Source of the DNA: an uncultured Gammaproteobacteria bacterium
GTDB lineage: Bacteria; Patescibacteriota; Patescibacteriia; S139-126
Direction: 5' to 3'
Assembly (NCBI GenBank): GCA_964493305.1
Contig: CAZBLW010000001.1
Span: forward strand, 113,484-177,483
Length of the DNA: 64,000 nucleotides
Shown here: piece by piece, positions 36,423 to 54,229 of the stretch
Layout: every line of letters begins with the position of its first letter
Numbering within the stretch: position 1 is the first letter of the stretch
Notes under the pieces: model-generated
The model's database searches: none
Seen by the model: only the letters and a program-made list of their open reading frames with translations
Told to the model about the DNA's origin: nothing
Position numbers and translations under genes: made by a program

Positions 36423-36513
36423 GGAGAGGTCGCATAGTGGTCTAGTGCGGTTGCTTGGAGAGCAACTAACGGTTCATAGCCGTTCGAGGGTTCGAATCCC
36501 TCCCTCTCCGCCA
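36423..36513 (+). tRNA. tRNA-Ser (anticodon GGA)
   Basis: GGAGAGGTCGCATAGTGG..., anticodon loop TTGGAGA, long variable arm, T-arm GAGGGTTCGAATCCCTC, CCA. Confidence 0.85.
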
Positions 36514-36614
36514 GTTCGTGCTAGCACGAACTACTTACGAAAAAGCACCCCATGAAAGGGTGTTTTTCTGTAAGGCTGGATTTTTTTCTTGTTATATTTT
36601 AAGATAACATAGTA

Positions 36615-36836
36615 ATGCAATCACATAATATGAAAGATGAGGCAGTAAAACTTGGAAAGAATCTTAAACGTATCCGTATCGAAAAAGGGATATCACAGGT
36701 TGATATAGCCCGATCTCTTAAAGTTAGTAGAGGTTTTATAAGTAATATAGAAAATGGTAAGACGAATCCTACGTTAGCAACCATTGCTAGAATAGCCAAA
36801 GCAGTGGGTGTATCAACCAATGAGCTTTTAAAATAA
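36615..36836 (+). CDS. XRE-family helix-turn-helix transcriptional regulator
   Basis: 73 aa; GISQVDIARSLKVSRGFISNIENGKTNP HTH_3 pattern. Confidence 0.75.
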   Translation: MQSHNMKDEAVKLGKNLKRIRIEKGISQVDIARSLKVSRGFISNIENGKTNPTLATIARIAKAVGVSTNELLK

Positions 36837-36839
36837 TCT

Positions 36840-38426
36840 ATGAATAAAAAAGATTCAAATTCAAACAGGACAAAAGAACAAGAACGTTCAGAGCTTCATC
36901 GTGCTATTTGGCAAATAGCTACAGATTTACGAGGAAGCGTAGACGGTTGGGATTTTAAACAGTACGTACTGGGTATGCTTTTTTATCGGTTTATTAGTGA
37001 AAATTTGACCAACTATATAAACGATGATGAGAGTCGATCAGGTAACAAGAATTTTGATTATGCCATGCTTTCAGATAAAGAAGCTGAGTTTGGTCGGGCT
37101 GATACAGTAAAAGAAAAAGGTTTTTATATTTTGCCAAGTGAGCTTTTTGTTAATGTTCGTAAAAAAGCTCGTAATGACGCAAACCTTAATGAGACGCTCG
37201 CGTCTGTTTTTAGAAATATTGAAAATTCGGCAAAGGGTGCTAGTAGTGAAGATGATTTGAAGGGCTTATTTGATGATGTTGATGTTAATTCCAATAAATT
37301 AGGAGGAACAGTAGAAAAAAGAAATCAAAAGCTTGTGAAGTTATTAGAAGCAGTTGGTGACCTTAAGCTTGGTAATTACTCTGATAATACAATAGATGCT
37401 TTCGGTGATGCCTATGAATTCTTAATGGCAATGTATGCTTCAAATGCTGGAAAGTCTGGCGGTGAATATTACACTCCGCAAGAAGTTAGTGAATTGCTAG
37501 CAGAAATTACGACAGTCGGTAAAAAAGAGGTAAATAAGGTTTATGATCCAGCCTGTGGTTCTGGTTCTTTACTTTTAAAATTTGCAAAAGTTTTAGGTAA
37601 AGAAAATGTACGTCTTGGATTTTTTGGTCAAGAAATTAACCTGACCACATATAACCTTTGCCGTATTAACATGTTTTTGCATGATATAAATTATAATCAT
37701 TTTGATATTGCTCATGGTGATACTCTTACCGATCCTAAACATTGGGACGATGAGCCATTTGATGCCATAGTGTCCAATCCGCCATATTCAATCAAATGGG
37801 ATGGTGATGCAAACCCTCTTTTGATTAATGACCCTCGTTTTTCGCCAGCTGGTGTATTGGCTCCAAAAAGTAAAGCCGATCTAGCTTTTACAATGCATAT
37901 GCTTTCATGGCTTTCCACCAGCGGTACGGCAGCGATTGTTGAATTTCCCGGGGTCCTGTATAGAGGTGGAGCTGAACAGAAGATTCGAAAATATCTTGTA
38001 GATAATAATTATATTGATACGGTTATTCAACTTCCGCCTGATTTATTTTTTGGGGTTACAATAGCTACATGTATCATTGTTTTAAAAAAGAGTAAGAAAG
38101 ATAATAAGGTATTGTTTATAGATGCTAGTAAAGAGTTTATTAGGGGTGGAAATAAAAACAAATTGAGCGATACAAACCGCACTAAGATTTTAGATACATT
38201 TAAAAATCGTAACGACATAGAATACTTTGCCAAACTAGTAGAAAACAAGACTGTGGCTGAGAATGATTATAATATTGCGGTATCAAGTTATGTTGATATG
38301 CAGGACATTAGAGAAAAGGTGAATATCAAAGAGTTAAATAAAAAAATTGCTGAAATAGTTTCAAAACAAAATGATTTACGTAAGTCTATTGATAAGATTG
38401 TTAATGATATTGAGGGATCTAAGTAA
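36840..38426 (+). CDS. hsdM: Type I restriction-modification system methyltransferase subunit
   Basis: 528 aa; N6-adenine MTase motifs (DPACGSGSLL motif I, NPPYS motif IV); HsdM N-terminal domain. Confidence 0.9.
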   Translation: MNKKDSNSNRTKEQERSELHRAIWQIATDLRGSVDGWDFKQYVLGMLFYRFISENLTNYINDDESRSGNKNFDYAMLSDKEAEFGRADTVKEKGFYILPSELFVNVRKKARNDANLNETLASVFRNIENSAKGASSEDDLKGLFDDVDVNSNKLGGTVEKRNQKLVKLLEAVGDLKLGNYSDNTIDAFGDAYEFLMAMYASNAGKSGGEYYTPQEVSELLAEITTVGKKEVNKVYDPACGSGSLLLKFAKVLGKENVRLGFFGQEINLTTYNLCRINMFLHDINYNHFDIAHGDTLTDPKHWDDEPFDAIVSNPPYSIKWDGDANPLLINDPRFSPAGVLAPKSKADLAFTMHMLSWLSTSGTAAIVEFPGVLYRGGAEQKIRKYLVDNNYIDTVIQLPPDLFFGVTIATCIIVLKKSKKDNKVLFIDASKEFIRGGNKNKLSDTNRTKILDTFKNRNDIEYFAKLVENKTVAENDYNIAVSSYVDMQDIREKVNIKELNKKIAEIVSKQNDLRKSIDKIVNDIEGSK

Positions 38427-38432
38427 GAATGT

Positions 38433-39890
38433 ATGTATATATCAAAAATTAAATTTCATAATTTTAAAGGATTCAAGGGGGATCACGAGCTTAATTTTGA
38501 TAAAGGTATAAATTTTTTTGTTGGTGACAATAATTGTGGTAAATCAACGGTTTTTGAAGCAATCGATTTTATTTGTGCAAAGAAGGAAAGAAATGAAGTT
38601 ATTACTAAAACGGAAATTGAAGGTGATGATTTTGTTTCAGTTGAGATTGAATTTAGGGGTGAGGATATTAAACCTCTTATTGCCACAGAGGCATTAAAGA
38701 AATATGAATCATCTATTATAGAAGCCGCTGACCAGACTATTTTACGGGTGATGCGATCCAGTGAAGAAACAGAAATTACGCAGGGTGGTAAAAAAAAGAA
38801 TCTTGACATTAAGAATGTTCGTGTTTTTAACCCAACTTCTAGCCAGTTTGAAAACCCTACAGGAATTGATAATACAATTACAGCATTATTTGATGCACAA
38901 TTTGTTTGGGCTGATACTAATCCTGGCGATATTTCAGATTTTTCAAAAACTAAAATATGCGGAAAAATTATAAATGTGATCACTCAGGATTTTGTTAACT
39001 CTCAAACTTGGAAAAAATTTAGGGATTCCCATAAAGAAACTTTTGGCGATGGAGCAAATAGTCTAGCCACCACACTTAAACCGATTGAAGAGAAATTAAA
39101 GACTATTTTAACAGAACAGTACGGGGATACTGAGGTTAGATTTAGTTTTTCTCTCCCAGAAATAGAGAGTTTTTTTAAAACCGGAAATATTGATTTGTCG
39201 GAAGATGGTATTGAGACGAAGAGCTCGGAAAAAGGTACGGGTATGCAAAGGGCATTGGCCCTAGCACTTATTCAAGTATATGCTGACATTTCATCATCTA
39301 ATGGGGAAGATATTTCAAAGCCAATTCTATTCTTTATTGATGAACCGGAGACTTTTTTACATCCAAGAGCACAAAATAAGCTTCTTGATGCACTAGAGAA
39401 AATATCGGATAAATCACAAATTTTTATTATCACTCATTCCCCATATTTGTTAAAAAAATATAAAAAAGAAACCCATTCAATGAATGTTTTTTCAAAAGAG
39501 GCAGGATTAAACAAGGCTGAAGAAGGTAAGGAGTTTGATTTATTTGGAACGTCGAGTCCTACATGGGGAGAAATTAACTATTATGCCTTTGGAGTTCTGT
39601 CTGTCGAATTTCATAACGAACTGTATGGTTTTATTCAAGCAAAGGCGATTCTGGAAGATGAAAAAAATTATTTTGAAGAAGAATTCGAAAAGTACTTAGT
39701 TAATAAAGGCATTGTGCAGGATCAGCCATATATCCGTCTGAAAAAAGATGGCACTACAGAAAACCAGACAAGAACTTTACCAACGAAAATTAGAAATATT
39801 ATTCACCATCCAGACAACACATACAATACAAAATATACTGACGAAGAATTAAAAAGCTCTATCGAGTCTCTAATACCGCTATTGAAATGA
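38433..39890 (+). CDS. ABC/AAA15-type ATPase with C-terminal HEPN-like R-N-x3-H motif; PrrC/RloC-like candidate, a restriction-linked ORF nested in the type I R-M operon
   Basis: Walker [10 protein letters not shown] (aa 31-39), Walker B/D-loop [13 protein letters not shown]-loop ITHSP. C-terminal ~150 aa end with [11 protein letters not shown] (R-N-I-I-H-H). Confidence 0.5.
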
Positions 39891-41086
39891 CTAAACATCA
39901 AAGTAAAATTGAAAAATTAATCAATCAGTTATGCCCACAAGGTGTGGAATTTAAAGAGTTGGGGCAAATTTTGGATTATGAACAGCCAACTAAATATATA
40001 GTTAATTCCACTCGGTATAATGATGATTATGAAATCCCTGTTTTAACTGCTGGTCAAAGTTTTATTTTAGGTTACACAGATGAAATTGAGGGAGTATATG
40101 AATCTGGTAAAAAAAATCCAGTAATTATTTTTGATGATTTTACAACATCATTTCATTGGGTTGATTTTAATTTTAAAGTAAAGTCATCAGCAATGAAAAT
40201 GTTGAGGCCACATGAAGATGTTAAAGTAGACTTTAAATTTGTATATTATGCCATGAAGTGCATTAATTATGTTCCGCAAGATCATGCACGTCATTGGATA
40301 TCAAAGTATTCAAAATTTAAGATTCCTTTTCCACCTATCACAATTCAACAGGAAATAGTTCGTGTGCTAGACTCTTTTACAGAGCTGGAAGCAGAGCTGG
40401 AAGCAGAGCTGGAAGCAGAGCTGGAAGCAAGAAAGAGGCAATATGAGTATTATCGAAATGAATTATTTATATTTGATCAGAGCGTGAAATTTAAACATAT
40501 CAAAGAACTTTCTTTAGAAACTTTTTGGATAATGCCAGCAACTCCAAATTTTACATCCGATGGTAATGTGCCATATATCACATCAAAAAATATAAGAAGT
40601 GGTAACATAGATTTTACGAACGTAAAGAAGATATCAAGACAATCTTTTTTAAATATATCTAAAAATCGACCAATAGTTCGAGATGATATTTTGATAAGTA
40701 TGATTGGTACTATAGGTGAAGTTGCACGTGTTAAAGATAGTGATTTGGAGTTTTATGGTCAAAATATGTATCTTGTAAGATTGAATCAGGAGAAGATAGA
40801 CGTAGGTTATTTTTTACACTTTTTTGACTCAGATAAAATGAAAAACTACTTTGGCTCTATAAAGAATAGGTCCAGTCAAGGTTATCTAAAGGCTGGTCAA
40901 GTAGAATCTATTAAAATTCCAGTACCAGTATTAAGTGAACAAAAAAGAATAGCGGCCATATTAGATAAATTCGATGACCTTGTTAATGATATTTCAATTG
41001 GATTGCCAGCTGAAATTAAAGCTAGAAAATTACAGTATGAGTATTACAGAAGTAAACTTTTAACTTTTGCAGAATATGCCAGTTAA
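39887..41086 (+). CDS. hsdS: Type I restriction-modification system specificity subunit
   Basis: 399 aa; two TRDs separated by a central conserved region (…[29 protein letters not shown]) and a C-terminal conserved region ([16 protein letters not shown]). Confidence 0.85.
40382..40429 (+). repeat. Perfect 4x tandem 12-bp repeat (gagctggaagca) encoding (ELEA)4 in the central conserved region of hsdS
   Basis: Directly visible tandem repeat; in-frame (12 nt). Confidence 0.9.
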
Positions 41087-44000
41087 TAAATACAATTTAG
41101 TTGCCGAAAATTCCCAAAGCACAGTAGTAGCGGAATATACACCAGACAAAAAGCGCTCTAAAAATTACCAAAGCGAGGCAGAATTAGAGAGTGCTTTTAT
41201 CGAGTTACTTAAAACGCAGGCCTATGATTATTTGACTATTACGTCTGAGGATGATCTGATATCAAATTTACGCAAGCAGTTGGAAAAACTTAATGGTTTT
41301 GAATTTAGTGATTCGGAATGGAGTCAGTTTTTTGAAAGTGAGATTGCTAATCCAAATCAGGGTATTGAAGAAAAGACAGAAACTATTCAAGAAGATTATA
41401 TTAAAAATTTAACCCGTGATGACGGCACGGTTAAAAATGTATATCTTTTGAAAAAAGATAATATACACGACAATAATTTACAGGTCATTAACCAATATGC
41501 AACTGAGAAGGGTCAACGAGCTAATCGCTATGATGTAACAGTTCTTGTTAATGGTTTACCACTAGTACACATTGAGCTTAAGCGTCGTGGTGTAGCTATA
41601 CAGGAGGCTTTCAATCAAATTAATCGTTACCAACGAGAGAGTTTTTGGGCTGCGTCTGGCCTTTTTGAATATGTACAGTTATTTGTCATTTCCAATGGCA
41701 CTCATACAAAATACTATAGCAACACTACTCGTTTAGAACATATCAAAGAATCAGTTGAAGGATCAGTCAAAAAGGGCAAAAAGACAAGTAATAGTTTTGA
41801 ATTTACAAGCTGGTGGGCGGATGCTACTAACCGTCCAATTATGGATTTAATGGACTTTGGTAAAACTTTTTTTGCCAAGCATGCTATTTTGAATATTTTG
41901 ACTCGCTATTGTGTATTTACAACAGATCGCTTGTTGCTTGTTATGCGACCCTACCAAATTGTTGCAACAGAAAGAATATTAAATAGGGTAGAAGTTAGCA
42001 CAAACTACAAAAAACTTGGCACTGTTGAGGCCGGTGGGTATGTGTGGCATACTACTGGATCTGGCAAAACGTTAACCAGTTTTAAAACAGCTCAGTTAAT
42101 TAGTAAATTGTCAGATGTTGAAAAAGTATTATTTATTGTCGATCGTAAGGATTTAGATTATCAGACAATGCGGGAATATGACAAGTTTGAAAAAGGGGCG
42201 GCCAATAGTAACACCAGTACGGCAATTTTAAAAAAACAAATTGAAAATCCTAATACTCGTATAATTATTACTACTATCCAAAAGTTGGATCGTTTTATCG
42301 CCCGTAACGGAGGCCATAATATTTTCAACGGGCATGTTGTTTTAATTTTTGATGAATGTCATCGTTCTCAATTTGGTGAGATGCACGCAGCCATTACAAA
42401 GTCATTTAAAAATTATCACATCTTTGGTTTTACGGGTACGCCGATTTTTGCAGTTAACGCTTCATCAAGCGGGCGACCAGATTTAAGGACTACCGAGCAA
42501 GCCTTTGGTGATAAACTACATACCTATACTATTGTTGATGCTATTGCTGATAAAAACGTTTTGCCGTTTAAGGTTGATTATGTTTCTACGGTGCGAGAAG
42601 CGGAAGACATCGAAGACAAAAAGGTTAGTGATATTGATCGTGAGGCGGTACTGTCTTCGCCTGAACGTTTGTCTAAAATTGTTGGTTACATTCGTGAACA
42701 TTTTGATCAAAAAACTAAACGTAACAGTTTTTATAAACTAAAAGATAGACGTCTAGCTGGCTTTAATTCCATTTTTGCTGTTTCTTCAATTGACGTTGCT
42801 AAAAAGTATTATGCGGAATTCAAAAAGCAATTGGCTGATTTGCCAAGTGATAAACAGCTTAAAGTTGCTTTGATTTACAGCTTTGGTGTAAATGACGAAG
42901 ACGCTGACGGCATGATTGATGAAAATTTAGAAGATACCAGCGGACTGGATAAAAGTTCACGTGACTTTTTAGATAGTGCTATTTCAGATTATAATTTAAT
43001 GTTTGGCACTTCTTATGACACTTCTTCTGATAAGTTTCAAAATTACTATAAAGATGTAAGTCAGCGGGTAAAAGATAGGGAAATTGATATTCTTATCGTG
43101 GTCAATATGTTTTTGACTGGTTTTGATGCAACAACGCTTAATACTCTTTGGGTAGATAAAAACTTGCGATTGCATGGACTATTGCAGGCTTATTCTCGTA
43201 CCAATAGAATTCTAAATAGCATAAAAACATTTGGTAATATTATTTGCTTCCGTAATTTAGAAAAAGCAACTAATGAATCAATCGCTCTTTTTGGCGACAA
43301 GGAAGCAAGCGGTATTGTTCTTTTGAAATCATACGAGGAATATTATCATGGTTATAAAGACGGTAAAAAAGAAGTACGTGGTTATGAGAGTTTGGTTAAT
43401 GAGCTGTTAGAAAAGTTTCCTGTCAGCGAACGAATCATGGGCGAACAAGATCAGAAAGATTTTATTAGGCTATATAGTGCTATTTTAAGAGTGCGTAATA
43501 TTCTAGTAACCTTTGATGAGTTTGCTGGCAACGAGATTTTAACTGAGCGTGATGTTCAGGATTACCATAGCATGTATATTGATTTGTATAATGAGTTTAA
43601 AAAAGCGGTTGAAAATGAAAAAGAAAATATCAACGAGGATTTAGTATTTGAAATGGAGCTTATTAAACAGATTGAGATCAATATTGACTATGTTTTGGGA
43701 TTGATCAAAAAATATCATGAAGATCATACTAAGAATCGAGAAATTCTATTAGATATAAATAAGGCGATTGATTCTAGTGTTGGGTTACGTAATAAGAAAG
43801 ATCTCATCAATAAATTTATTACCTCCCTTGACGTTCATTCGGTTGTTGATGATGATTGGAAGAAATTTGTTGAAAAGAAGAAGCTTGAAGAGCTTGATGA
43901 AATCATTGCTAAGGAAAATCTTGATCGAGACGCAACTTATAAATTTATAAAAAATGCATTTCGTGATGGAGGTATTGCAACCGCTGGTACGGCCATAACT

Positions 44001-44126
44001 AAAGTTTTACCACCTGTATCTCGTTTTTCTCCGACTGGTGAGCGTAGTAAAAAGCGTGATAGTGTTTTAGGTAAACTAACAATTTTTTTTGAAAGATTCT
44101 TTGATATTTCAGAAGGTAATTTTTAA
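41067..44126 (+). CDS. hsdR: Type I restriction enzyme endonuclease/helicase subunit
   Basis: 1019 aa; Walker [13 protein letters not shown]-box FDECHRS, SF2 helicase motifs; overlaps the hsdS stop. Confidence 0.9.
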
Positions 44127-44134
44127 TATAGTTG

Positions 44135-45463: not shown

Positions 45464-45563
45464 GCCCCCATTAATGACAGAACCACCAGATTTGCTAAGC
45501 CCATTGCTGTCGATAACTTGTTGGCAACTTTTCTCTAGTTTTTATTAAGGAATACTAACGTTT

Positions 45564-47027
45564 TTAAATAAAATATATCCTTGGTACACGAGGGGGCTTT
45601 TCAGAAACACTATGTACTAAGTTGGAAAATGCGTCGACTAAATCGTCGTGTTTTTCTACGCCAAAATGAACGATCTGCTGTATCAGTTGTTCGGCTCCTT
45701 TTCTTGGAAACAGTACTTGTCCTGATTTGATGAGGTTAGCGGTCAGCACTAGGCGACTTCTCTTATCTTGATAACCGGGCCGGGTGGTCATGACGTGCCA
45801 CAACCCCTCGCTTTTTAATTGTTGCGGTAGGGCTTTTTGATACGCAACATCTTCGATGATAAACGTCGGAGGCAGACCATCTCTTTCATAACTTTTTTCC
45901 AGTAGCTTACAAGTATCAACGGTTTCGGGGAATGTCATGCGCCTATTGATGATTTTTGGAAGAATATATACACGATAACTCGTTTCAGTTTCATATAATA
46001 ATCCCAGTACCATAGCGGTATAGTCGGCAAGATTACTTTTTGAAATAGCGGGGTCAATGCCAATCCTTACTTCCATATGTGAGGAATAACCACTCTTAAA
46101 TTTTATTGGCGCCGGTATTTCATCATAGAAATGAATCCATTCCGGATAGATAGCTTGATCTTCGTCTGGAATAATATTCAGCAAGAATTCGCGTTGCCAA
46201 GCGATATCATCGCCAACTTTTCTTTTTTCAGCTTCAATGTCCTCACTGGTTGGATATTTGCCGGGCCATAAACATTTCCCTTTATTATCGATCAGGGGGA
46301 AATAAAGAAAGTTACCGTCAATGTTGTTATGTTCAGATTCGTCTTTCAAGCGCATGAGGAGCGAATCCTCGTGCAAGAGATTGCCCACCACGATTAACCG
46401 TGTGTTTTTATCCCCGGCTGGAATAACCTCGCCCTTGAGCCATTGATACGTCTTATTTCTGCCTTCCCGTGTCTTGGTTGAGGTCATATCTTCCACGTCA
46501 TCGCAAATAATCAAATCCGGACGATGTTCATGATGCCGAAGCCCCCGGATGCTTTGCTCAGTGGATGCTACGGTAATGCGCGCATCGGTATTGGAAAATA
46601 CCAGGGAATGCGAGCCCCATTCGTCGTTATCTTCTTGAAACGGGCCAAGGTCTTTTTTTAACAAATCATTATCCTCAAGCTCCCGGCGTAAATTCATCAT
46701 GTGTTGCTTGGCCTGGGTTTGGGTCTGGCAAAAAATGACCACAAACTTTTTTTGTTGTTTGCCTAAGATTGCCCAGATCGGATAAGCCGTGGTGATAACA
46801 GTAGATTTTCCTGATCCGCGGAAGGCGACCACAAACAGATTTTTATGGTCATTTATTTCGAGGAGATGGATAATCTCTTTTTGAAAATCTGCCGTGGCAT
46901 ATTTGACGTAGTGGGCGTAGTAGAAGTGAAAGAAGTAAGAAAAACTTTCCTTAGTGATGGCTATTCGTACTTTCTTGTCTTTCGTCATCTGCTCCACCAG
47001 GTCCTGTGGAATTATTTCGGTTGTCAT
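45564..47027 (-). CDS. terL: Phage terminase large subunit
   Basis: 487 aa; Walker A AFRGSGKST in the N-terminal ATPase; C-terminal RNase-H-like nuclease region with acidic residues (IGIDPA...). Confidence 0.8.
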   Translation of the reverse strand: MTTEIIPQDLVEQMTKDKKVRIAITKESFSYFFHFYYAHYVKYATADFQKEIIHLLEINDHKNLFVVAFRGSGKSTVITTAYPIWAILGKQQKKFVVIFCQTQTQAKQHMMNLRRELEDNDLLKKDLGPFQEDNDEWGSHSLVFSNTDARITVASTEQSIRGLRHHEHRPDLIICDDVEDMTSTKTREGRNKTYQWLKGEVIPAGDKNTRLIVVGNLLHEDSLLMRLKDESEHNNIDGNFLYFPLIDNKGKCLWPGKYPTSEDIEAEKRKVGDDIAWQREFLLNIIPDEDQAIYPEWIHFYDEIPAPIKFKSGYSSHMEVRIGIDPAISKSNLADYTAMVLGLLYETETSYRVYILPKIINRRMTFPETVDTCKLLEKSYERDGLPPTFIIEDVAYQKALPQQLKSEGLWHVMTTRPGYQDKRSRLVLTANLIKSGQVLFPRKGAEQLIQQIVHFGVEKHDDLVDAFSNLVHSVSEKPPRVPRIYFI

Positions 47028-47421
47028 CTGGTTTAATGTTTAATGGTAAAATTTGAGCCAATTGCAAGGCCTTGTGTACAATTTCGGTTTGCGAGGGGGT
47101 TAATTCTCCGGTATCGTCGAATTTGGAAGTGACCTCGACCTTGTCTTTGAATTTTGGATTCCGGTGGCGGAGCCAAAAGCTGATGGCTGACCAGTTTTTC
47201 TCTTTGATGAGCGTGAGGAGTTGGCTCTCGCTCATGTCATTCACTAGCGCCTCACCCTCAGCTAAGGCCTCGTCCATATCCTGACTGAATGTTTTATCTT
47301 CTCGTTTCCAGCGATATACGCTGTTGCGGGAAATACCTGTTTTTTCGCAAGCAACCTGCACAATGGGTATTTTTCGCAGTTCATCGAGAAAACCGTTTTT
47401 TACCTTATTTTTCTTGGCCAT
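46951..47421 (-). CDS. HTH protein, terminase small subunit-like
   Basis: 156 aa; N-terminal HTH (VACEKTGISRNSVYRWKRED); located immediately upstream of terL, with its 3' end overlapping the terL 5' end by ~77 nt in another frame. Confidence 0.5.
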   Translation of the reverse strand: MAKKNKVKNGFLDELRKIPIVQVACEKTGISRNSVYRWKREDKTFSQDMDEALAEGEALVNDMSESQLLTLIKEKNWSAISFWLRHRNPKFKDKVEVTSKFDDTGELTPSQTEIVHKALQLAQILPLNIKPDDNRNNSTGPGGADDERQESTNSHH

Positions 47422-48685
47422 ATACTTTTGCTTTAATACCTGTTAACCGCTCGTACCTCTTTATCGCTAAATCGCAAAAAATCGGTTCAAGCTCCATGGC
47501 ATAGACCTTTCGTTTTAATTGTTCCCCGGCGATAAGCGTACTGGCTGACCCGGAAAATGAATCAAGAATAATATCACCAGGCTTACTGCAGCGCCGGATC
47601 GCTTTTTCGTGGAGTTTCGGCGGCTTGCTGGTGGCGTGTTCGTATTTTTTGCCAGCCAAACGCTTCACCAGCCACACGTCCAGTTCATCCAGGCTTTCTT
47701 CCAACAGGTTATTCCCTGTGGTTATTTCCTTATTTAAGATTTCATTGAGATTTTTGATGGAGGGCGCAATGTATGGTTTTCCTTTCACGCCGTACACGGC
47801 TGGCTCATAGCATTTGTTAAACGCGGTCTGGGGTGTTGGGTTTTGTGAGTTTTTAATCCACAGACAGACACGTTTGTTCGCAATGCCAAGCTCTCGATAC
47901 AGTTCTTGCATCAGGCCTATATATGTCTGGTCGCACCAGTAGAAGATGTGGCAATCCGGCCTTGCCACCGATACGGCGGCAATAAGGGTGTCTTTAATGA
48001 ATTGTTTATATTCCTCATATGATCGGTTATCATTCACCACTCCACCGTAGTCCTTTTTTCCTCCAATGCCCTTGGTGTAATTAAGATTCAAATTATATGG
48101 AGGATCACTATATATAACCGATGCCCGGTCGTTGCCAAAGAGCCGCTTGAGGTTTTTGGGATCGGTTGAACTACCGCAGAGCAGTCGATGTGGTCCTAGC
48201 ACGATTAAGTCACCCAATTTAGTTTTGGGAGTTTTAATTTTTTTGATCTCCTGTTCAATGTCGAAATCTTCGTCTTTCACCTCCAGCTCGTTATCCCACA
48301 GGTGTGAAAGGTCAATCTGATCAAATCCCACATCAAGCAATAGATCCAAGTCAAAAGATTTCAGTTTTTCAAAATCCCAGTCACCGCCCAGGGCGTTGCT
48401 GGCTATGAGGTATTGTTTAGCCTCTTTTTCTGTGAGTTTGCGACTAGGGATACGGACATCAATAACTTCTTCCCCTCTGCCCAGAAATTGTAAGGCCTTG
48501 ATCCGCTGATGCCCGGCTAATATTTTCCCGTTAATATCAATAGCGGGAATTTCAACCAGATTGTATCTGGTGAGACTTTTTTTTAGATCCGACATTTGTT
48601 TGTCGGTGATGGTGCGAGGGTTCACGTCTTGGGGGATAAGATCGTTTACTCGCTTTTGCACGGTGTGCCACGTCAGTTTTTTCAT
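47405..48685 (-). CDS. ParB-like nuclease domain / DNA N6-adenine or N4-cytosine methyltransferase fusion
   Basis: N-terminal ParB/Srx motif (AGHQRIKA); MTase motif IV SDPPY followed by motif I LDSFSGSAST (beta-class order). Confidence 0.8.
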   Translation of the reverse strand: MKKLTWHTVQKRVNDLIPQDVNPRTITDKQMSDLKKSLTRYNLVEIPAIDINGKILAGHQRIKALQFLGRGEEVIDVRIPSRKLTEKEAKQYLIASNALGGDWDFEKLKSFDLDLLLDVGFDQIDLSHLWDNELEVKDEDFDIEQEIKKIKTPKTKLGDLIVLGPHRLLCGSSTDPKNLKRLFGNDRASVIYSDPPYNLNLNYTKGIGGKKDYGGVVNDNRSYEEYKQFIKDTLIAAVSVARPDCHIFYWCDQTYIGLMQELYRELGIANKRVCLWIKNSQNPTPQTAFNKCYEPAVYGVKGKPYIAPSIKNLNEILNKEITTGNNLLEESLDELDVWLVKRLAGKKYEHATSKPPKLHEKAIRRCSKPGDIILDSFSGSASTLIAGEQLKRKVYAMELEPIFCDLAIKRYERLTGIKAKVYGQEK

Positions 48686-48780
48686 ACGATGTTATTAATT
48701 ATTAAAAACTAACTGAGTCGATTATAAAGAAAAAACCGAGGCGTTGTGCTTCGGTTAAAAATATTGTTTAAATGTATAAG

Positions 48781-49725
48781 CTATATTTCTCCTAGTCTTT
48801 TTTTAGTTCTCGTAATGATAGTTCGAATACCATTGGTGGTTAATTTCGGCCATTTCTTTCTCATTTTAGCGAGTATATTAATATCGGTGGCTGTAAAACC
48901 AGAAAGACCTAACTCTCTATTCGGAGTAAGCTTCTTTTTTAATTCTTTATAGAGGTTATATACCATAATATCCCTGTCAAAAGTTTTCCATTCTTTGCTC
49001 TTGCCGATGTAGTCCTTTAACCGTTTTTGTTCCTCCGCTATCTGACCCCAGTTTTCCATGATGTCTTCTTTTTTGGTATGGCCGAGGATTTGCACAAATA
49101 GTTCCATTTGTTCAGTTTTTTCTTTTCGTTTCCAAGCAACATAAAAGTGAGGGGTGCGGTATTCCCTTCTGCCAAAAAAAATATATAGTTCCAAAAAATC
49201 CCTAAACCCTCGATCATTGTAATCAATGCCGAAGTGATTGAGTATCTCGTTGTAGGTTTGCCCATATACGGGTGGCAAGAATTTTTCTCTGAATTCATCC
49301 AACGCATCATATTCTTCGCTGGATATACGTTTTTTTCCGCCGGTAATGCGGAGTTTATTTTGTATGTATTCATCACTTCGCTCCATTTCCGCAAAGCGGT
49401 TCCAGAAATGTTCGTTCCAGGTTTTATATTGTTTATATTTTTTAAACGGTTTTCTGGGCAAGGGGCAACCCACTTCGGCAAAACGTTTCTTGAGCCAATC
49501 GATTTTTTCCAAAAACCATTGGTCCCGGATCATAGCTTGGGCCTTATAGTAGTTCTGGTCGTATATTTTACGGCTTTGCTTATTTTTCTTTATTTTTGTG
49601 GATTTCATGTGGATATTTAGCAGGTTGACAGATGTGGACAGTTCTGTATAATTATATATACCATGAATAAAACGAAAAAGATAGACTTGGCGGGTTACGC
49701 CTATATCCGTAATCAGGTTATCCAT
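48781..49725 (-). CDS. Hypothetical protein (true start probably the internal Met near 49605)
   Basis: 314 aa ORF; the first ~40 codons overlap the divergent repressor gene and its promoter, so a later start is likely; no recognisable motifs. Confidence 0.4.
   Translation of the reverse strand: MDNLITDIGVTRQVYLFRFIHGIYNYTELSTSVNLLNIHMKSTKIKKNKQSRKIYDQNYYKAQAMIRDQWFLEKIDWLKKRFAEVGCPLPRKPFKKYKQYKTWNEHFWNRFAEMERSDEYIQNKLRITGGKKRISSEEYDALDEFREKFLPPVYGQTYNEILNHFGIDYNDRGFRDFLELYIFFGRREYRTPHFYVAWKRKEKTEQMELFVQILGHTKKEDIMENWGQIAEEQKRLKDYIGKSKEWKTFDRDIMVYNLYKELKKKLTPNRELGLSGFTATDINILAKMRKKWPKLTTNGIRTIITRTKKRLGEI
49625..49652 (+). promoter_or_regulatory. Near-consensus sigma-70 promoter giving an essentially leaderless transcript for the LexA-like repressor
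   Basis: TTGACA (49625-49630) - 16 nt - TATAAT (49647-49652); ATG at 49663. Two ATGTGGA(Y)A direct repeats (49607 and 49632) overlap the promoter. Confidence 0.55.
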
Positions 49726-50280
49726 ACCGGGGTAACGCCGTCTTTGCGGGAAATAGGACGGGTTGTGGGTTATAATTCCCCTCGCTCCGTGCAGTTAATG
49801 CTTGAGAGGTTGCAGAGGCAGGGCCTGCTTTCATATGAGGATGGAATAATTAAGCTGTCTCCTCGTAAAAGAAAAAGCCAGGCTGAGCGAACCGTATCTG
49901 TACCCCTGGTGGGATCGGTGGCGTGTGGCATGCCGTCGCTGGCAGAACAGGAACCCGAGGCTATGATAGAGGTGTCAACCAAGTTGGCTACGCCGGGACA
50001 CATATATTTTCTACTCCGTGCACGAGGTACGTCCATGAACAAATCGGGTATTAAGGATGGCAATTTAGTTTTAGTGAGACAACAGCCTACTGCCGAAAGA
50101 GGAGACAAGGTTGTTGCACTAATAAATGATGAGGCAACAATAAAATTATTTTATCCTGAAAAAGATATGGTTGTCCTGAAACCTGATTCGACCGACAAGG
50201 AGCACAAACCAATTATTCTATCTGATGAATTTTTTATACAAGGGGTTGCGGTTGCATCCTTCCCCTCTGATATATACTAA
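49663..50280 (+). CDS. LexA-like / phage CI-like S24 peptidase repressor
   Basis: 205 aa; N-terminal LexA-type winged HTH (TPSLREIGRVVGYNSPRSVQLMLERLQRQGLL); cleavage-site-like VACG; Ser (RARGTSM) and Lys (EATIKL) catalytic dyad. Confidence 0.75.
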   Translation: MNKTKKIDLAGYAYIRNQVIHTGVTPSLREIGRVVGYNSPRSVQLMLERLQRQGLLSYEDGIIKLSPRKRKSQAERTVSVPLVGSVACGMPSLAEQEPEAMIEVSTKLATPGHIYFLLRARGTSMNKSGIKDGNLVLVRQQPTAERGDKVVALINDEATIKLFYPEKDMVVLKPDSTDKEHKPIILSDEFFIQGVAVASFPSDIY

Positions 50281-50298
50281 TCATTAAAATCAATCTTT

Positions 50299-50445
50299 AT
50301 GAGTAAAGGATCAAAAACCTTCCCCCTTGGCAGGGATTCCAAGACTGGCGAATTTATTCCGGTCAAGGAAGCCAGGCAGCACCCCAATACCACTACTGTG
50401 GAACGTGTGCCGAAGCGTGGCTACGGCGATACTAAGAAAAAATAA
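50299..50445 (+). CDS. Unlisted 48-aa small ORF (hypothetical)
   Basis: ATG..TAA ORF below the 60-aa track threshold, filling the gap between the repressor and GIY-YIG genes; no strong SD, so tentative. Confidence 0.25.
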   Translation: MSKGSKTFPLGRDSKTGEFIPVKEARQHPNTTTVERVPKRGYGDTKKK

Positions 50446-50457
50446 CCATCTTAAAGT

Positions 50458-50811
50458 ATGCAATTAAAATGGACAGAGCGGATTCCGCTCACAAAAACCG
50501 GTGTTGATAAGATAAATTCAATTGCCGGCGTGTACCGTTTGATTTATAAAGAATCAGATGATAAGTATTACGTGTATTATGTCGGGCAAACGGACGATTT
50601 AAATGACAGGCTTTCCCAACATCTCTCGGACAACGAGGAAAACGAATGTTGCCAAAAACATCTCGATAAGTATACCTGCTATTTTCGAGCGGCTGCTATT
50701 TCAACGCAAGCCAATCGGGATGGTGCCGAAGTAGCACTCTATAATCAATATAAACCTACATGTGTTGAAAGAGTTCCTGATGTTGATCCAATTGAAATTA
50801 ATTTTGATTAA
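50458..50811 (+). CDS. GIY-YIG domain protein
   Basis: 117 aa; GVYRLIYK...YYVYYVGQTDDLNDRLSQH matches the GIY-X10-YVG...R...H pattern. Confidence 0.65.
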   Translation: MQLKWTERIPLTKTGVDKINSIAGVYRLIYKESDDKYYVYYVGQTDDLNDRLSQHLSDNEENECCQKHLDKYTCYFRAAAISTQANRDGAEVALYNQYKPTCVERVPDVDPIEINFD

Positions 50812-50813
50812 TT

Positions 50814-51125
50814 ATGTCAGAAACCGCATCGCATAAAAACACAAAAACCCGCGGATTGAAAGGCTCAAAAACTGAGATCAAAATCCCCGGGAACCGTCGA
50901 CTTGATGCAGGTACATCAAATCGTGCTCGAGAAGTTGAAAGAAGTGGCAATAAAAAATCGATTGCGAAAGCCGTAAGGCGCCTTAACAGTCAAACTAATA
51001 AGAAAAAGGAATTATTGGTGCCGACGCAAAATCTTGATATGGCAAAATCGGTTGCAAAAAAAGTTGCTAAAGGAAAAATATTGATCCAGAATCTATCTAG
51101 GACTCAGAGACGGTTTGTTGAATAA
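50814..51125 (+). CDS. Hypothetical highly basic protein
   Basis: 103 aa, Lys/Arg-rich, no motifs recognised. Confidence 0.35.
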   Translation: MSETASHKNTKTRGLKGSKTEIKIPGNRRLDAGTSNRAREVERSGNKKSIAKAVRRLNSQTNKKKELLVPTQNLDMAKSVAKKVAKGKILIQNLSRTQRRFVE

Positions 51126-51143
51126 TTTGGTTTGTAAATATTT

Positions 51144-51527
51144 ATGTCTACAACAACTCAGTTTATAACTGCTGATTTTTTGGATGGCGTCATCAAATCC
51201 ACTCTAGCGATTCTTTGGAATATATTTAAAAGTATCTGGCCTTCCATAAAATATTTCCTAATAGGTTTTACAATATATATTGCTGGTGGTGTGCTGTTGC
51301 AAATAATTATGTTGAAAGGTAGTGGCAATCGTCACAAGTTGTCAGCACATTTTAATAAAATAGTTGGCGCTCTCACATATGCCGTCTTTTTTATTTTATA
51401 TCTGTTTATCGCTTATAAAATATGGGGGCCTCAGGTAATTGATGATTTATGGTTTACTCTAATTGGAACGCTCTCTTTTATTTCAACGTGGCTATTTTTA
51501 AGACTCATAGGTTTTTGGTACTATTAG
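51144..51527 (+). CDS. Hypothetical membrane protein (3 TM helices)
   Basis: 127 aa, hydrophobic segments. Confidence 0.4.
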   Translation: MSTTTQFITADFLDGVIKSTLAILWNIFKSIWPSIKYFLIGFTIYIAGGVLLQIIMLKGSGNRHKLSAHFNKIVGALTYAVFFILYLFIAYKIWGPQVIDDLWFTLIGTLSFISTWLFLRLIGFWYY

Positions 51528-51543
51528 TTTATAGGTTATTTAT

Positions 51544-52218
51544 ATGGAGCTATCAGATGAATTAATTCAAAAATTCAAAGATTTAACCGAAAAAAAGCAG
51601 GGTGAAAAAATTTCTTGGGAAGAAGCAAAAGAAGGTGTGAGTAGTTTTTTGCGTCTGATGGAGCTTTTCTATAAACAGGCGACAATTGACCATAAACGTC
51701 AGTTGAAACTAAAGGAACATCCAAAGGGTTTTCATATTGAAGGTCAAGGATATACCTGCGCTATTTGTTATGGCTCCATATCCGATGAGGAAACGTGGTA
51801 TGACAAATGGGGTATCAAATGCCTCTTATGCCAAAAGGCTATAGATAAAAAGATAATCCCGGGCTCAGTAGCTAAAAATGATAACACTTGGTATTCGGAA
51901 CATGATCTCCATACTAGGTTCAATATCGACAAGCGTGCAATGAAAGAATTTGTTAAAGCAGGTGTTTTAAAACCACGTATCGTACCTAACGCTTCCGGTC
52001 GCCCACATGTGTATATTTTTATGATAAAGGATAATAAAGACACGCTCCCACCAAAACACTTAACCGAGTCGGAACATGTGAGTTATAAAGGTGAAGAAAA
52101 AGGCAGAATTCATATTGAGCCGTGGTACAGATTTGTTGATCCGTACAAACATTTAGAGGTGTATAAAATCATGAATTATTTAAATGTTGTAAATAAAAAT
52201 GAAACTCATATCAAATAG
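51544..52218 (+). CDS. Hypothetical protein with CxxC...CxxC zinc-finger motif
   Basis: 224 aa; CAICYG...CLLCQ. Confidence 0.4.
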   Translation: MELSDELIQKFKDLTEKKQGEKISWEEAKEGVSSFLRLMELFYKQATIDHKRQLKLKEHPKGFHIEGQGYTCAICYGSISDEETWYDKWGIKCLLCQKAIDKKIIPGSVAKNDNTWYSEHDLHTRFNIDKRAMKEFVKAGVLKPRIVPNASGRPHVYIFMIKDNKDTLPPKHLTESEHVSYKGEEKGRIHIEPWYRFVDPYKHLEVYKIMNYLNVVNKNETHIK

Positions 52219-53701
52219 AAGATGGAATTTAGATAGTGAAAAAGCCAGTCAAATAAAAAATTGGCTAATTGAGCATGGGGGCACGGCAGACGAAAAAGTT
52301 GGCGAGTATGAAAATTGGCGAGTTAGATATTCTGATGCTGTTTTTACTTACTATACAAAAGGGACTCTTTATGTCACTGACTCTAATGATGGTGCCCTTA
52401 ACGAAGCACACGAATTGGTAGATTCACTTGTCGGATCAAAATTTGTTGAACCTTCAAAAGAAGTTTTAATAGGTTTTGATGAAACAGGTAAAGGTGAGGT
52501 ACTCGGCCATGTGGTATTGGTTGGCGTATTAATTCCTGCTAATCTATATCATGAAATTGAGAAGGTAATAGGTGTCGCGGATACAAAAGTGAGCCATACT
52601 GTGGAGTATTGGGATGATATATTTAACAAAATAGATTTTTTTAGGTCAAAAGGCCTTCAATTTATTATTGAAAAAATTCCCCCATGGCATTTTGATCGTT
52701 ACAATATCAATAAGCTACTAGATATTACTTATCAACGAATTTTGCTGTCATATAGTACAAAATCTAACTTGTCAAAGACTAGGGTTGTTTTTGATGATTA
52801 CGGAATAGGATATAGTCTTAAGAGATATTTAAATGCTATATCTCAGGGAGGAGCAGAGATTATTAAAACAACAAAAGCGGATGATAAATATCTCGAATCA
52901 AGAGTAGCTTCGCTTATTGCAAAACGAGAGCAACAAAAAATAATGGCCGCTATATCCAGTAATCCAGAATTTAAAATAGAAACTCAAAGTATTGGTAGTG
53001 GTAATGCTGGTGACAAAAATACTGTTGGTTGGCTAAAATCCTGGTATGAGACTAATCATGATTGGCCGTGGTTTGTGAAACAATCATTTAAAACAATTGG
53101 AGATATAGAAGGACGTGTAAATAAAATACAAAAGGCCATACCTCCTATCAATGAACACTTATTATCAAAAGAATTCAGGGAAAAATTTGAAAGTGGTGAA
53201 TTAAACATACAATCTTTATCGGTTGTTTGCCCTTGCGGCGCAACTGCAAAAGCAATTAAATTAATTTATAAGGATAAAATTGTTACGGCTATCTGTGCAA
53301 GTTGTAAGAATAAATTACAAGACGCCGCACTGACTTTACGATATTATTGTGGACGCATTATTCCTGATACAAGTGTGATTTCAAGCGGTTTATTATCAAT
53401 GGATTTAGATTCCTCAAAATTTTTTGAAAACTTTACTTTTTTAATACATCCAACAGTTCGGCGTGAAAGTGATACCAAGGGGGGTAAAAGAGAATTTGAG
53501 CGTCTTGCTAATTTTGCGGCCATTGGGAGGATTAAATTGGAAGAGACGGGGTCAATTCTGGATCCAAAAAAATTGGATAACATATCACGTGACGAGTCAA
53601 TACTTATTGGTGCTATTGATTCTAAAGCTATTTTATTGACTAGGGATAATCAAATGAAAGGTATAGCTCAAGCAAAAAACCTTTTTGTAATAGAAGGCTA
53701 A
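52199..53701 (+). CDS. Multidomain protein with an RNase HII-like nuclease core and a C-terminal zinc ribbon
   Basis: Residues ~85-210: IGFDETGKGEVLGHVVLVGV (cf. RNase HII G-x-D-E-x-G-R-G-P-x-x-G-x-V-V), ADTKVS (cf. DSKKLS), VVFDDYG (cf. LIDGN). Later CPCG...CASC. Confidence 0.45.
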   Translation: MKLISNRRWNLDSEKASQIKNWLIEHGGTADEKVGEYENWRVRYSDAVFTYYTKGTLYVTDSNDGALNEAHELVDSLVGSKFVEPSKEVLIGFDETGKGEVLGHVVLVGVLIPANLYHEIEKVIGVADTKVSHTVEYWDDIFNKIDFFRSKGLQFIIEKIPPWHFDRYNINKLLDITYQRILLSYSTKSNLSKTRVVFDDYGIGYSLKRYLNAISQGGAEIIKTTKADDKYLESRVASLIAKREQQKIMAAISSNPEFKIETQSIGSGNAGDKNTVGWLKSWYETNHDWPWFVKQSFKTIGDIEGRVNKIQKAIPPINEHLLSKEFREKFESGELNIQSLSVVCPCGATAKAIKLIYKDKIVTAICASCKNKLQDAALTLRYYCGRIIPDTSVISSGLLSMDLDSSKFFENFTFLIHPTVRRESDTKGGKREFERLANFAAIGRIKLEETGSILDPKKLDNISRDESILIGAIDSKAILLTRDNQMKGIAQAKNLFVIEG

Positions 53702-53868
53702 TTATAAATGTGACAAACGACTGTAACTTTATAATTGATTATAGTGTCACTTTTGTCACCTTTTAAATATTAGGCGCACGAGGATCTTGCTGTATGATAT
53801 AATAAAAGTACTTTGGAAAGCCTTACAGGGGTTGCCTGATTGAGGTTCCAGCCCGAGGTAGCCCGCCA

Positions 53869-53904
53869 TTACTAAAGTTGTGACGTAAGTCACAAGTTTA
53901 GTAA
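53869..53904. other. Near-perfect 16-bp stem hairpin (ttactaaagttgtgac-gtaa-gtcacaagtttagtaa)
   Basis: Inverted repeat read directly from the sequence, just inside the right end of the island. Confidence 0.7.
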
Positions 53905-53927
53905 TAGTGAATGCGGAAGTTGGGATT

Positions 53928-54017
53928 CGAACGGGTGCGAGCGAGATATGAGCGTCAGCGAATAATCGAGCGACAGACAATCCGAGTTGGCACAGGATTG
54001 GCTGGCACCCAGGACAA
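53928..54017 (-). repeat. Conserved ~90-nt core element, copy B (reverse complement of 261-350)
   Basis: 84/90 nt identical to copy A. Bracketed by GGGATTCGAAC (antisense of the tRNA-Ser T-arm) at 53922-53932 and by the sense 19-nt tRNA-Ser 3' fragment at 54038-54056. Confidence 0.8.
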
Positions 54018-54037
54018 GGAGCTAAAAGTTCCGCGTA

Positions 54038-54056
54038 AATCCCTCCCTCTCCGCCA
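54038..54056 (+). repeat. 19-nt direct repeat of the tRNA-Ser 3' end (attR-like) with ~45 nt of tRNA-flank-like sequence after it
   Basis: aatccctccctctccgcca is identical to the last 19 nt of both tRNA-Ser genes. The following ttaaacttcgctaacg...ttaattttttatacatatatttaa is ~80% identical to the 54328-54375 flank. Confidence 0.8.

Positions 54057-54140: not shown

Positions 54141-54229
<89 letters not shown>

Follow-up and report, generated by a model that had tools for sequence, protein, structure and literature searches.

A terminase-bearing integrative element probably placed by a large serine recombinase at the extreme 3' end of a tRNA-Ser gene in a Patescibacteria genome

For integrative elements at tRNA genes, a direct repeat that reaches from the T-loop to the CCA end of the tRNA is the classical attachment (att) site geometry of tyrosine integrases. 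Here, we describe an island that seems to have this geometry, in a stretch of 64,000 nucleotides from an uncultured bacterium of the GTDB lineage Patescibacteriota (assembly GCA_964493305.1, contig CAZBLW010000001.1, positions 113,484 to 177,483). We refer to the whole stretch as “the window”, and coordinates are those of the window unless a comparison locus from another genome or contig, designated by an L-number, is named. We consider it very likely that positions 36514–53868 are a single integrative element, and that its insertion, at the very 3' end of a tRNA-Ser(GGA) gene, was the work of its own large serine recombinase (LSR). The repeat itself belongs to a neighboring unit.

Several described families share features with this element. 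PLEs are phage satellites that have a large serine recombinase as integrase, lack structural genes of their own, and have an anti-phage role (PMC9638900, PMC9410903). The window element is likewise LSR-driven and has no detected structural genes; helper dependence, which has been shown for PLEs, is only presumed for the window element. PLEs integrate at the VCR repeats of the superintegron, not at tRNA genes, and to our knowledge they have neither a pair of terminase large and small subunits (TerL and TerS) nor an S24 repressor. The tycheposons of Prochlorococcus are tRNA-targeting cargo or PICI-like elements that are stacked at tRNA hotspots, with partial-tRNA remnants; hallmark genes of replication (primase/helicase) are common to them, and those that are PICI-like have TerS or a major capsid protein and no cargo (bioRxiv 10.1101/2020.12.28.424599). 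The combination of an LSR with a tRNA target is rare yet known, since 27 of 937 tycheposon-type elements in the same report have an LSR. By these descriptions, the window family is set apart by having TerL, TerS, and defense cargo, by having no recognizable replication module, and by its host phylum. The likeness to SCCmec, with its CcrAB recombinases, lies in exchangeable cargo and in LSR-driven insertion at the very 3' end of a conserved target gene, which is kept intact. The SCC target is rlmH, not a tRNA gene, and we know of no SCC element with a terminase or repressor. The best NCBIfam match of the window LSR is CcrB, but at 114 bits against a cut-off of 900; the LSR is therefore not a Ccr. 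Lastly, PICIs and cf-PICIs resemble the window element in combining an integrase, a repressor, and one or more packaging genes without a full virion module, and these islands often have defense genes. PICIs mostly have tyrosine integrases and a pri-rep module, together with TerS or, in cf-PICIs, capsid genes; we know of none that carries TerL and TerS together. On the features tested (CcrB score, tycheposon replication hallmarks, target, and gene set), the window element is outside the PLE, tycheposon, and SCCmec families. A literature search returned nothing relevant on a Patescibacteria LSR element of this type, nor on the tRNA-appended units discussed below. An abundant, tRNA-Ser-targeting, terminase-bearing LSR element with a tRNA-mimicking attP arm and two defense bays is thus a variant that we did not find described.

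The integration target, tRNA-Ser(GGA), is complete and occupies 36423–36513 on the plus strand (ARAGORN; Rfam tRNA, 56.5 bits; tRNA genes were called with these two resources throughout). It would have formed the left arm of attB and now lies in attL. A prior reading of the window from its letters (the sequence-only reading) had proposed an accessory island integrated at this gene, and relatives bear this out. The host genome is Paceibacter-like and falls within the Patescibacteria. In L006 (PEP synthase 91% identical), tRNA-Ser(GGA) is followed by an 85-nt spacer and then by tRNA-Ser(TGA). The spacer (L006 12967–13051) is homologous to window positions 54057–54140, the ancestral inter-tRNA spacer, which in the window leads to tRNA-Ser(TGA) (54141–54228, plus strand; ARAGORN and Rfam), the second gene of the ancestral tRNA pair. 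L006 is therefore an empty site of the kind that the sequence-only reading had proposed to look for. In L004, tRNA-Ser runs unbroken into the hairpin that in the window lies beyond the island, and there is no island. The flanking genes p85 and p73/p223/p177/p261 are syntenic in the window, L004, and L006, and none of the 17 island proteins that were searched against the L004 and L006 loci has a match there (0/17). Judged by this comparison of loci, the window island is an insertion.

The enzyme responsible is indicated by the genes of the island and by their relatives. Among the island ORFs (open reading frames), no tyrosine recombinase was found in four hidden Markov model (HMM) libraries (Pfam, PHROGs, NCBIfam, and PADLOC), in line with the sequence-only reading; four proteins remain without annotation. 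The candidate that the reading had named instead, a serine recombinase, is a 442-aa LSR encoded on the minus strand (44135–45463), with Pfam Resolvase, Recombinase, and Zn_ribbon_recom domains and a match to the integrase family phrog_95 (6.4e-63). The protein is intact: it is full length, and an alignment with relatives shows conservation of the catalytic YARKS motif and of four zinc-ribbon cysteines. A search of a large protein database found >8,000 family members at a threshold of E≤1e-50 and >100 clusters at 81–94% identity; where an organism is named, it mostly belongs to the Patescibacteria. Relatives of the LSR and of TerL were also gathered from IMG/VR. In 12 relatives, a tRNA gene, in most cases for tRNA-Ser, has its 3' end toward the convergent LSR gene. 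In five IMG/VR relatives, the 3' end of the LSR gene converges on the 3' end of tRNA-Ser(TGA), tRNA-Gln, tRNA-Glu, tRNA-Asp, or tRNA-Ser(CGA) at a distance of 117–890 nt. At a tRNA-Ser(GCT), L172 has a 94% identical LSR; this locus and the empty site L006 stem from one metagenome-assembled genome. Six further loci (L173–176, L178, and L179) have one 85%-identical LSR protein, also at tRNA-Ser(GCT), and may be a single element sampled in several metagenomes; a seventh locus of this set, L177, ends before the tRNA. In L172 and L173–179, the layout is as in the window, with a tRNA-Ser gene (here GCT), cargo on the tRNA strand, and a convergent LSR-TerL-TerS-methyltransferase block. The LSR is 117–208 nt from the tRNA in L101, L103, L106, and L112, but 7.6 kb away in the window and 5.9–9.5 kb away in L172–179, because a cargo cassette intervenes in the window and in L172–179. 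Given that the LSR family recurs at tRNA 3' ends and that no tyrosine recombinase was found, we conclude that the LSR is the integrase and that tRNA targeting is a trait of its family. Thus, it is a serine recombinase, not a tyrosine recombinase, that integrated the island.

The ends of the element were located by comparison with relatives at other sites. On the left, the window and L172 share the sequence GTTCGTGCTAGCACGAACTACTTACG... directly after the CCA of their tRNA genes and, including the XRE regulator gene that follows, are 91% identical over 352 nt. The terminus is a perfect palindrome, GTTCGTGCTAGCACGAAC (36514–36531), which is identical behind tRNA-Ser(GCT) in L172 and has a related counterpart, CATCGTGCTAGCACGAGG, in L173–179. 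It is followed by a terminator-like hairpin (36540–36569), the equivalent of which lies directly behind the LSR stop codon in short relatives. Because the same left end is found behind different isoacceptors in different genomes, the left junction lies in, or immediately at, the final bases of the tRNA. On the right, the guide is L182–184, in which the homolog of u224, a backbone protein described below, is only 65% identical to that of the window. These elements end in ...GATTGGGGTTCCAGCCCGATGTAGCCCGCCA, and a host terminator and host genes follow. The L182 end is identical at 31 of 33 positions to window 53838–53870, which comprises the right terminus, GATTGAGGTTCCAGCCCGAGGTAGCCCGCCA (53838–53868), and 2 nt of flank. 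Two motifs slightly further inside, GTGTCACTTTTGTCAC and GCGCACGAGGATCT (53744–53787), recur at the right end of the L182 element, and GTGTCACTTTTGTCAC recurs at that of the L103 element as well. Beyond 53868, the window reads TTACTAAAGTTGTGACG..., and this junction and the hairpin behind it are orthologous to the sequence right behind tRNA-Ser in L004 (88% over 73 nt). Together, the L172 left end, the L182–184 right end, and the match of the flank to L004 delimit an element of 17,355 bp, at 36514–53868. A boundary at 53836, obtained from the L172 alignment, was superseded by the far better L182 match, and the sequence-only reading, which had placed the right end at 54037, overshot the element's own end at 53868.

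With these ends, the att sites can be predicted. The LSR would recombine attP with tRNA-Ser genes at their 3' ends, on or next to the terminal CCA. The attP of the circular form would consist of the right terminus as P arm (...GGTTCCAGCCCGAGGTAGCCCGCCA, which imitates a 3' end of tRNA-Ser in degenerate form) and the left terminus as P' arm (GTTCGTGCTAGCACGAAC...), such that the predicted junction, 53868 to 36514, reads ...CCCGAGGTAGCCCGCCA followed by GTTCGTGCTAGCACGAAC, or in a shorter form ...GTAGCCCGCCA followed by GTTCGTGCTAGC.... The predicted empty attB would be tRNA-Ser(GGA)...CTCTCCGCCA followed by TTACTAAAGTTGTGACG. A crossover in or beside the terminal CCGCCA would keep the tRNA intact and duplicate ~6 nt. 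The repeat generated by the element is CCGCCA (36508–36513 and 53863–53868); because the terminal arm GGTTCCAGCCCGAGGTAGCCCGCCA mimics the tRNA 3' end, only these bases count as the element's repeat. In a hand alignment, made without a script or alignment tool, 18 of 32 positions agree between the P arm and the 3' end of tRNA-Ser, with the best agreement at both ends. Such likeness is expected if attP and attB have to be bound by one and the same protein. No repeat of ≥10 nt is present at the far end of L172, which agrees with serine-recombinase chemistry. In L097, L101, L106, and L112, either no distal att repeat rose above chance or the locus was too short. L106 also has a T-loop-like fragment, GTTCAAGTCCTATCGGCC, between tRNA-Asp and the LSR stop codon (oriented positions 116–264), which may be the leftover of an earlier att site.

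The geometry that points to a tyrosine integrase comes from a 19-mer, AATCCCTCCCTCTCCGCCA, which is present, as the sequence-only reading had noted, at the tRNA 3' end (36495–36513) and again at 54038–54056, with a chance expectation of 0 matches. The reading had taken the two copies as attL and attR of the island. If this were correct, the island would have been formed by a tyrosine integrase that has been lost or that acts in trans, the element would include a 188-nt non-coding unit that lies between 53868 and the spacer (the “B unit”, 53869–54056), and the circle junction, 54037 to 36514, would read ...GTTCCGCGTAAATCCCTCCCTCTCCGCCA followed by GTTCGTGC. The 19-mer is exact and non-random, and it spans the tRNA from the T-loop (A58) to the CCA, as is classical for tyrosine integrases; yet similar closing repeats are found at tRNA-Gly (window 218–432) and tRNA-Asp (L031) with no island between them, and no tyrosine recombinase is present in the four libraries. 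Similarly, the empty site in L006 consists of the tRNA and the spacer, with no B unit, as would be expected if the B unit had arrived with the island, but L004 has tRNA-Ser joined to the hairpin and a B unit with no island, and the B unit is missing from all LSR-element relatives. Furthermore, the conserved terminal arm stops at 53868, 170 nt before the 19-mer, and is directly followed by host DNA in L182, and in close relatives the element is not accompanied by a long tRNA-end repeat. We give insertion by a tyrosine integrase very little credence, and an element that ends at the 19-mer, with the B unit inside, was rejected on the same grounds. Since the B core stands alone at other tRNA genes and is missing from the LSR relatives, the 19-mer belongs to the B unit. 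It seems to close a 17.5-kb interval only as a result of where the LSR element went in, namely between the tRNA and a B unit already resident there, which now lies on the host side of the element's right end.

The 19-mer has two further copies nearby. The third (54210–54228) is the 3' end of tRNA-Ser(TGA), a gene on which the sequence-only reading is silent. The fourth is a 12-nt copy (54316–54327) that is part of a 20-nt repeat, CCCTCTCCGCCATCCAACTT (54217–54236 and 54316–54335), in which the 12 nt of tRNA are joined to 8 nt of flank. This repeat edges an 80-nt insert right behind tRNA-Ser(TGA), within 54229–54335. The insert has no B core and is probably a further recombination scar at the hotspot.

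The B unit of the window (plus strand) consists of the hairpin (53869–53904), a degenerate copy of the tRNA-Ser 3' end in inverted orientation (53913–53932), a core (53928–54019), and the closing 19-mer (54038–54056). Its core is 93% identical over 91 nt to a copy behind tRNA-Gly(TCC) (414–488, minus strand), which is part of a solo B unit at 178–432 on the minus strand (218–413 without the tRNA end and the outer terminator). This unit comprises the tRNA 3' 19-mer (414–432), a terminator (374–413), an inverted copy of the tRNA-Gly T-arm (346–358), the core, a second tRNA-Gly 19-mer (218–236), and the terminator in a second copy (178–217), with no genes between the two 19-mer copies. Other B-type units lie behind tRNA-Ser in L004 (12948–13135), behind both tRNA-Ser genes in L007 (7930–8125 and 8305–8439), behind tRNA-Asp in L031 (5027–5269), and, in L087/L088 (L088 526–735), at a site without a tRNA. 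A metagenome scan for the B core found one element on two contigs, and a scan of IMG/VR gave 0 matches. Three general features emerge: (i) the flanks follow the target tRNA (Ser, Gly, or Asp), and the core is up to 93% identical; (ii) the cores fall into two subfamilies, GGATTCGAACGGG... and GGATTCGAAGGC...; (iii) the direct copy starts at about T-loop position 58, and the youngest copies duplicate the tRNA terminator as well. The L031 unit has a perfect 61-nt direct repeat made up of 20 nt of tRNA and the entire terminator, and its 5' end is the reverse complement of the last 23 nt of tRNA-Asp at 19 of 23 positions. It adopts a three-way fold with an 18-bp closing stem (z = −8.2), of which older copies retain just the inner 6–8 bp. 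A consensus fold from five copies is too weak to call, owing to the small number of sequences and to the misalignment of L004. The possibility that the B unit is a tmRNA fragment or a known RNA family was rejected: ARAGORN found no tmRNA, and three Rfam scans were negative, with only chance matches at E≤10 in 53600–54400 and 53900–54056.

We propose tentatively, as a possibility that we hold to be doubtful, that B units are a new kind of gene-less, tRNA-templated element, with a mobile core of 100–130 nt between inverted and direct copies of the last ~19–23 nt of the adjoining tRNA. Their structure suggests either insertion by way of a single-stranded intermediate, DNA or RNA, whose fold recreates the 3' end of the tRNA, or copying templated by the tRNA (retro-type). 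Compared with these, an ordinary integrase reaction on double-stranded DNA seems less likely. The ideas considered for their origin were a folded single-strand att site, a tRNA-minihelix-like RNA, retro-copying, and a mini-element mobilized in trans. The inverted and direct copies, ~100 nt apart, could pair as a tRNA 3'-end duplex or minihelix, similar to folded-DNA att sites (CTXphi/IMEX attP and integron attC) and to the tRNA-like domain of tmRNA. Unlike CTXphi/IMEX and integron attC, B units are linked to no Xer or IntI-type enzyme, single-stranded DNA phage, or reverse transcriptase, and we regard the resemblance as no more than a lead.

Comparison with L172 also outlines the internal organization of the element. 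Three segments are 91–93% identical at the nucleotide level: 36484–36835 (tRNA end, left terminus, and XRE gene), 44149–48386 (LSR to methyltransferase), and 51516–52184 (u224). The segments between them are unrelated. The backbone consists of eight genes. The LSR gene is followed, all on the minus strand, by those for TerL (45564–47027; phrog_38, 2.5e-83, and NCBIfam terminase models), a TerS-like helix-turn-helix (HTH) protein (46951–47421; phrog_4044/309/4102), a ParB-domain DNA methyltransferase (47405–48685; Pfam N6_N4_Mtase, phrog_498 at 3.8e-84, and the ParB-like phrog_620), and a 275-aa protein (48781–49608). The last of these is supported by the gene call in L084/L180 and has a 277-aa counterpart in L172 (by position only); a listed ORF of 314 aa starts too early, and there is no HMM match in Pfam, PHROGs, or NCBIfam. 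On the plus strand are the genes for a LexA-like S24 repressor (49663–50280; Pfam Peptidase_S24, 2.1e-23, and LexA_DNA_bind), a conserved small protein of 48 aa (50299–50445; gene call, with a full-length homolog in L112), and u224 (51544–52218; 92% nucleotide identity to L172). Homologs of the repressor were found with tblastn in L098, L103, L107, and L114, and L173 has an S24-domain gene at the equivalent place. u224 has a homolog in L108 and 214 homologs overall, nearly all from Patescibacteria where an organism is named. In IMG/VR, the recurrent architecture is (S24 repressor)-ParB-methyltransferase-TerS-TerL-[0–8 kb of cargo]-LSR, at times in tandem.

Some contigs carry paired copies of these genes. 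L100 has two convergent LSR genes back to back (10001–12626), and two contigs, IMGVR_UViG_3300014205_009253 (L096/L102) and IMGVR_UViG_3300033402_000781 (L112/L113), each have two complete methyltransferase-TerS-TerL(-LSR) modules. Such pairs suggest tandem or head-to-head accretion of elements.

The variable segments form two cargo bays. Bay 1 extends from attL to the LSR and is headed by an XRE/C-protein-type HTH regulator of 73 aa that is conserved with L172 (36615–36836, plus strand; Pfam HTH_3, 4.8e-17; PADLOC control protein; 91% nucleotide identity). In the window, it precedes an XRE-controlled type I restriction-modification (R-M) system on the same strand, with HsdM (36840–38426; Pfam N6_Mtase, 7.8e-117; PADLOC MTase_I), HsdS (39887–41086; Pfam Methylase_S; PADLOC, 3.9e-108), and the 1019-aa HsdR (41067–44126; Pfam HSDR_N, SWI2_SNF2, and EcoR124_C; PADLOC REase_I, 1162 bits) all present and full length (Pfam, PADLOC). 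Between hsdM and hsdS is a gene for an OLD/AriA/GajA-like AAA ATPase (38433–39890; Pfam AAA_15/AAA_21; PADLOC Old, 1.1e-51). The central region of hsdS has four tandem copies of a 12-nt unit, CAGAGCTGGAAG (40380–40427), and the same-sample contig L084 breaks there. L172 has instead an XRE regulator, a 1589-aa helicase, and a WYL protein in bay 1, and L173–179 have another type I R-M system. In L098, L100, and L103, R-M genes or a reverse transcriptase lie between TerL and the LSR. Bay 2, at the right end, holds an RNase HII-like gene in the window (500 aa; 52199–53701, plus strand; Pfam RNase_HII, 3.6e-18) and a 900-aa helicase in L172. Possibly, a GIY-YIG protein of 117 aa (Pfam, 1.5e-6) also belongs to the bay 2 cargo; it is encoded at 50458–51527 on the plus strand together with proteins of 103 and 127 aa, which have no match in Pfam, PHROGs, NCBIfam, or PADLOC. 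In L182, two copies of the motif G(T/C)GCACGAGGATCTATT..ATTTATAA (7643–7743 and 8311–8458) flank a gene for 188 aa close to the right end and may mark a cassette insertion point within bay 2. Profile searches upheld every gene call of the sequence-only reading; by these profiles, the products are an XRE regulator, HsdM, OLD/AriA-like ATPase, HsdS, HsdR, large serine recombinase, TerL, TerS, ParB-methyltransferase, S24/LexA-like repressor, GIY-YIG protein, and RNase HII-like protein.

The RNase HII-like protein belongs to a cross-phylum family with 50–70% identity among Zixibacteria, Thaumarchaeota, Kosmotoga, and others (Bacteria and Archaea). Its homologs (L089–L095) are repeatedly found inside R-M loci, e.g., between hsdM and hsdS in L092/L093, and this location across phyla marks it as defense-type cargo. 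It has no PADLOC match, and we consider it a candidate stand-alone or R-M-associated defense gene. The idea that it is a novel recombinase was rejected, as it is a cross-phylum cargo gene of R-M loci.

The sequence-only reading had also suggested a composite of a defense module and a satellite-like module. Exchangeable defense cassettes do exist, yet a better reading, given the 91–93% identity to L172, is a single element in which a conserved backbone is combined with two defense cargo bays whose contents can be exchanged. A different history would be a defense island (36.6–44.1 kb and 50.4–53.7 kb) that arose at the tRNA and was later hit by a separate LSR/terminase satellite of 6.3 kb (44.1–50.45 kb). 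Such nesting would explain a sharp step in GC content that the sequence-only reading had seen, from 0.42 at 44135–50445 to 0.34–0.36 in the rest of the island and in the host, and the position of the LSR gene, which borders the GC-rich block and is separated from the hsdR stop codon by just 8 nt. However, the left terminus and XRE gene (91%) and u224 (92%) are kept together with the LSR block in L172, at another tRNA in another genome, and the order of tRNA, cargo, and LSR is the same in L173–179. The sole candidate for an inner junction is a 9-mer, AGCACCCCA, which lies inside the 48-aa ORF with its full-length homolog in L112. A nested LSR element edged by this 9-mer (36544 and 50378) was rejected, as the repeat is also at chance level, and GCACGAGGATCT, tried as a cargo-boundary repeat, has a single exact copy in the window. 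We judge a nested satellite to be improbable.

The single element has an integrase, a repressor, and packaging genes, and its most likely lifestyle is that of a phage satellite. Its gene set fits this lifestyle in lacking a virion structural module, as do L103 and other relatives. No capsid/head, portal, or tail genes were detected among the scanned window ORFs or in L103, a complete relative whose two ends are marked by copies of a 13-nt repeat that lie 15.3 kb apart, and packaging in the capsids of a helper is presumed for this reason. In the cycle that we propose, the LexA-like cleavable repressor would silence the element until an SOS response or helper infection, the LSR would excise it together with a directionality factor, TerS and TerL would steer packaging into helper phage capsids, and the ParB-methyltransferase and the cargo bays would protect the element and its host. 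The same genes could also be read as the remains of a temperate phage, i.e., a decayed, immobile prophage in which TerS, TerL, the LSR, and the repressor have survived. The order ParB-methyltransferase, TerS, TerL is typical of phages, and no evidence of excision was found; yet the same architecture without structural genes, with TerL followed by the LSR or by defense cargo, occurs in >15 independent relatives, and the att repeats of L103 are just 15.3 kb apart. The LSR is conserved (84–94%) over many lineages with its catalytic residues intact, which speaks for selection on the element and against debris. A prophage remnant therefore seems to us barely probable.

Several observations weigh against insertion of one mobile element by the LSR, or against the way in which we think it works. 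The 13-nt repeat of L103 lies ~24 nt downstream of the tRNA, not inside it, which means that att geometry varies within the family, and the L172 right end aligns just loosely with the P arm. The position of the crossover follows from sequence comparison alone. An LSR gene 7.6 kb from attL is atypical of LSR elements, although the cargo explains the distance and L172–179 have the same layout. The backbone has a GC content of 0.42 against 0.34–0.36 in both bays, a contrast that can also be read as nesting. Neither a replication module nor a directionality factor was identified in the element: the backbone has no primase, helicase, or Rep match, and the 275-aa protein, u224, and other ORFs are without annotation. 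No circular junction or excised form was found, with 0 matches in IMG/VR scans for both termini and the P arm, and current mobility is at most presumed. The satellite life cycle is conjectural, as no helper phage is known.

The tRNA-Ser pair shows further signs of rearrangement. An ABC transporter ATPase and permease gene pair (54390–55948) is missing from the syntenic loci L004 and L006, with a different gene in its place in L006; the tRNA-Ser pair as a whole is therefore a variable hotspot, on its downstream side too. The order of the two tRNA-Ser genes is swapped among close relatives (TGA-GGA in L004 and L005; GGA-TGA in L006, L007, and the window), with the 5' and 3' ends of the isoacceptors and the upstream spacers unchanged, which suggests conversion of the central part of the tRNA. 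Short-read contigs from the source samples break at the shared 29-nt tRNA-Ser 3' ends, at a 41-nt stretch common to two B cores, and at the hsdS tandem repeat, as seen at the end of L001, the start of L002/L003, and the end of L084. Island finders that are run on such short-read assemblies would miss the intact locus.

These results run counter to the working rule that a tRNA site means a tyrosine integrase. Finders that need a tyrosine integrase or a long tRNA repeat would miss or mis-delimit elements of this type. The B units are a separate puzzle, from which a new mechanism of insertion might be learned. For genome engineering, LSRs that are specific for tRNA genes and use short, defined att sites are potential reagents. 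The cargo bays amount to a catalog of defense genes in organisms with tiny genomes, the RNase HII-like protein being one example. More broadly, the mobile elements of the Patescibacteria (candidate phyla radiation, CPR) are poorly charted, and the window provides a fully delimited member of what is apparently one of their commonest. It also yields a testable rule for the family: its LSR targets the extreme 3' ends of tRNA genes, mainly tRNA-Ser, through an attP arm that imitates the tRNA 3' end.

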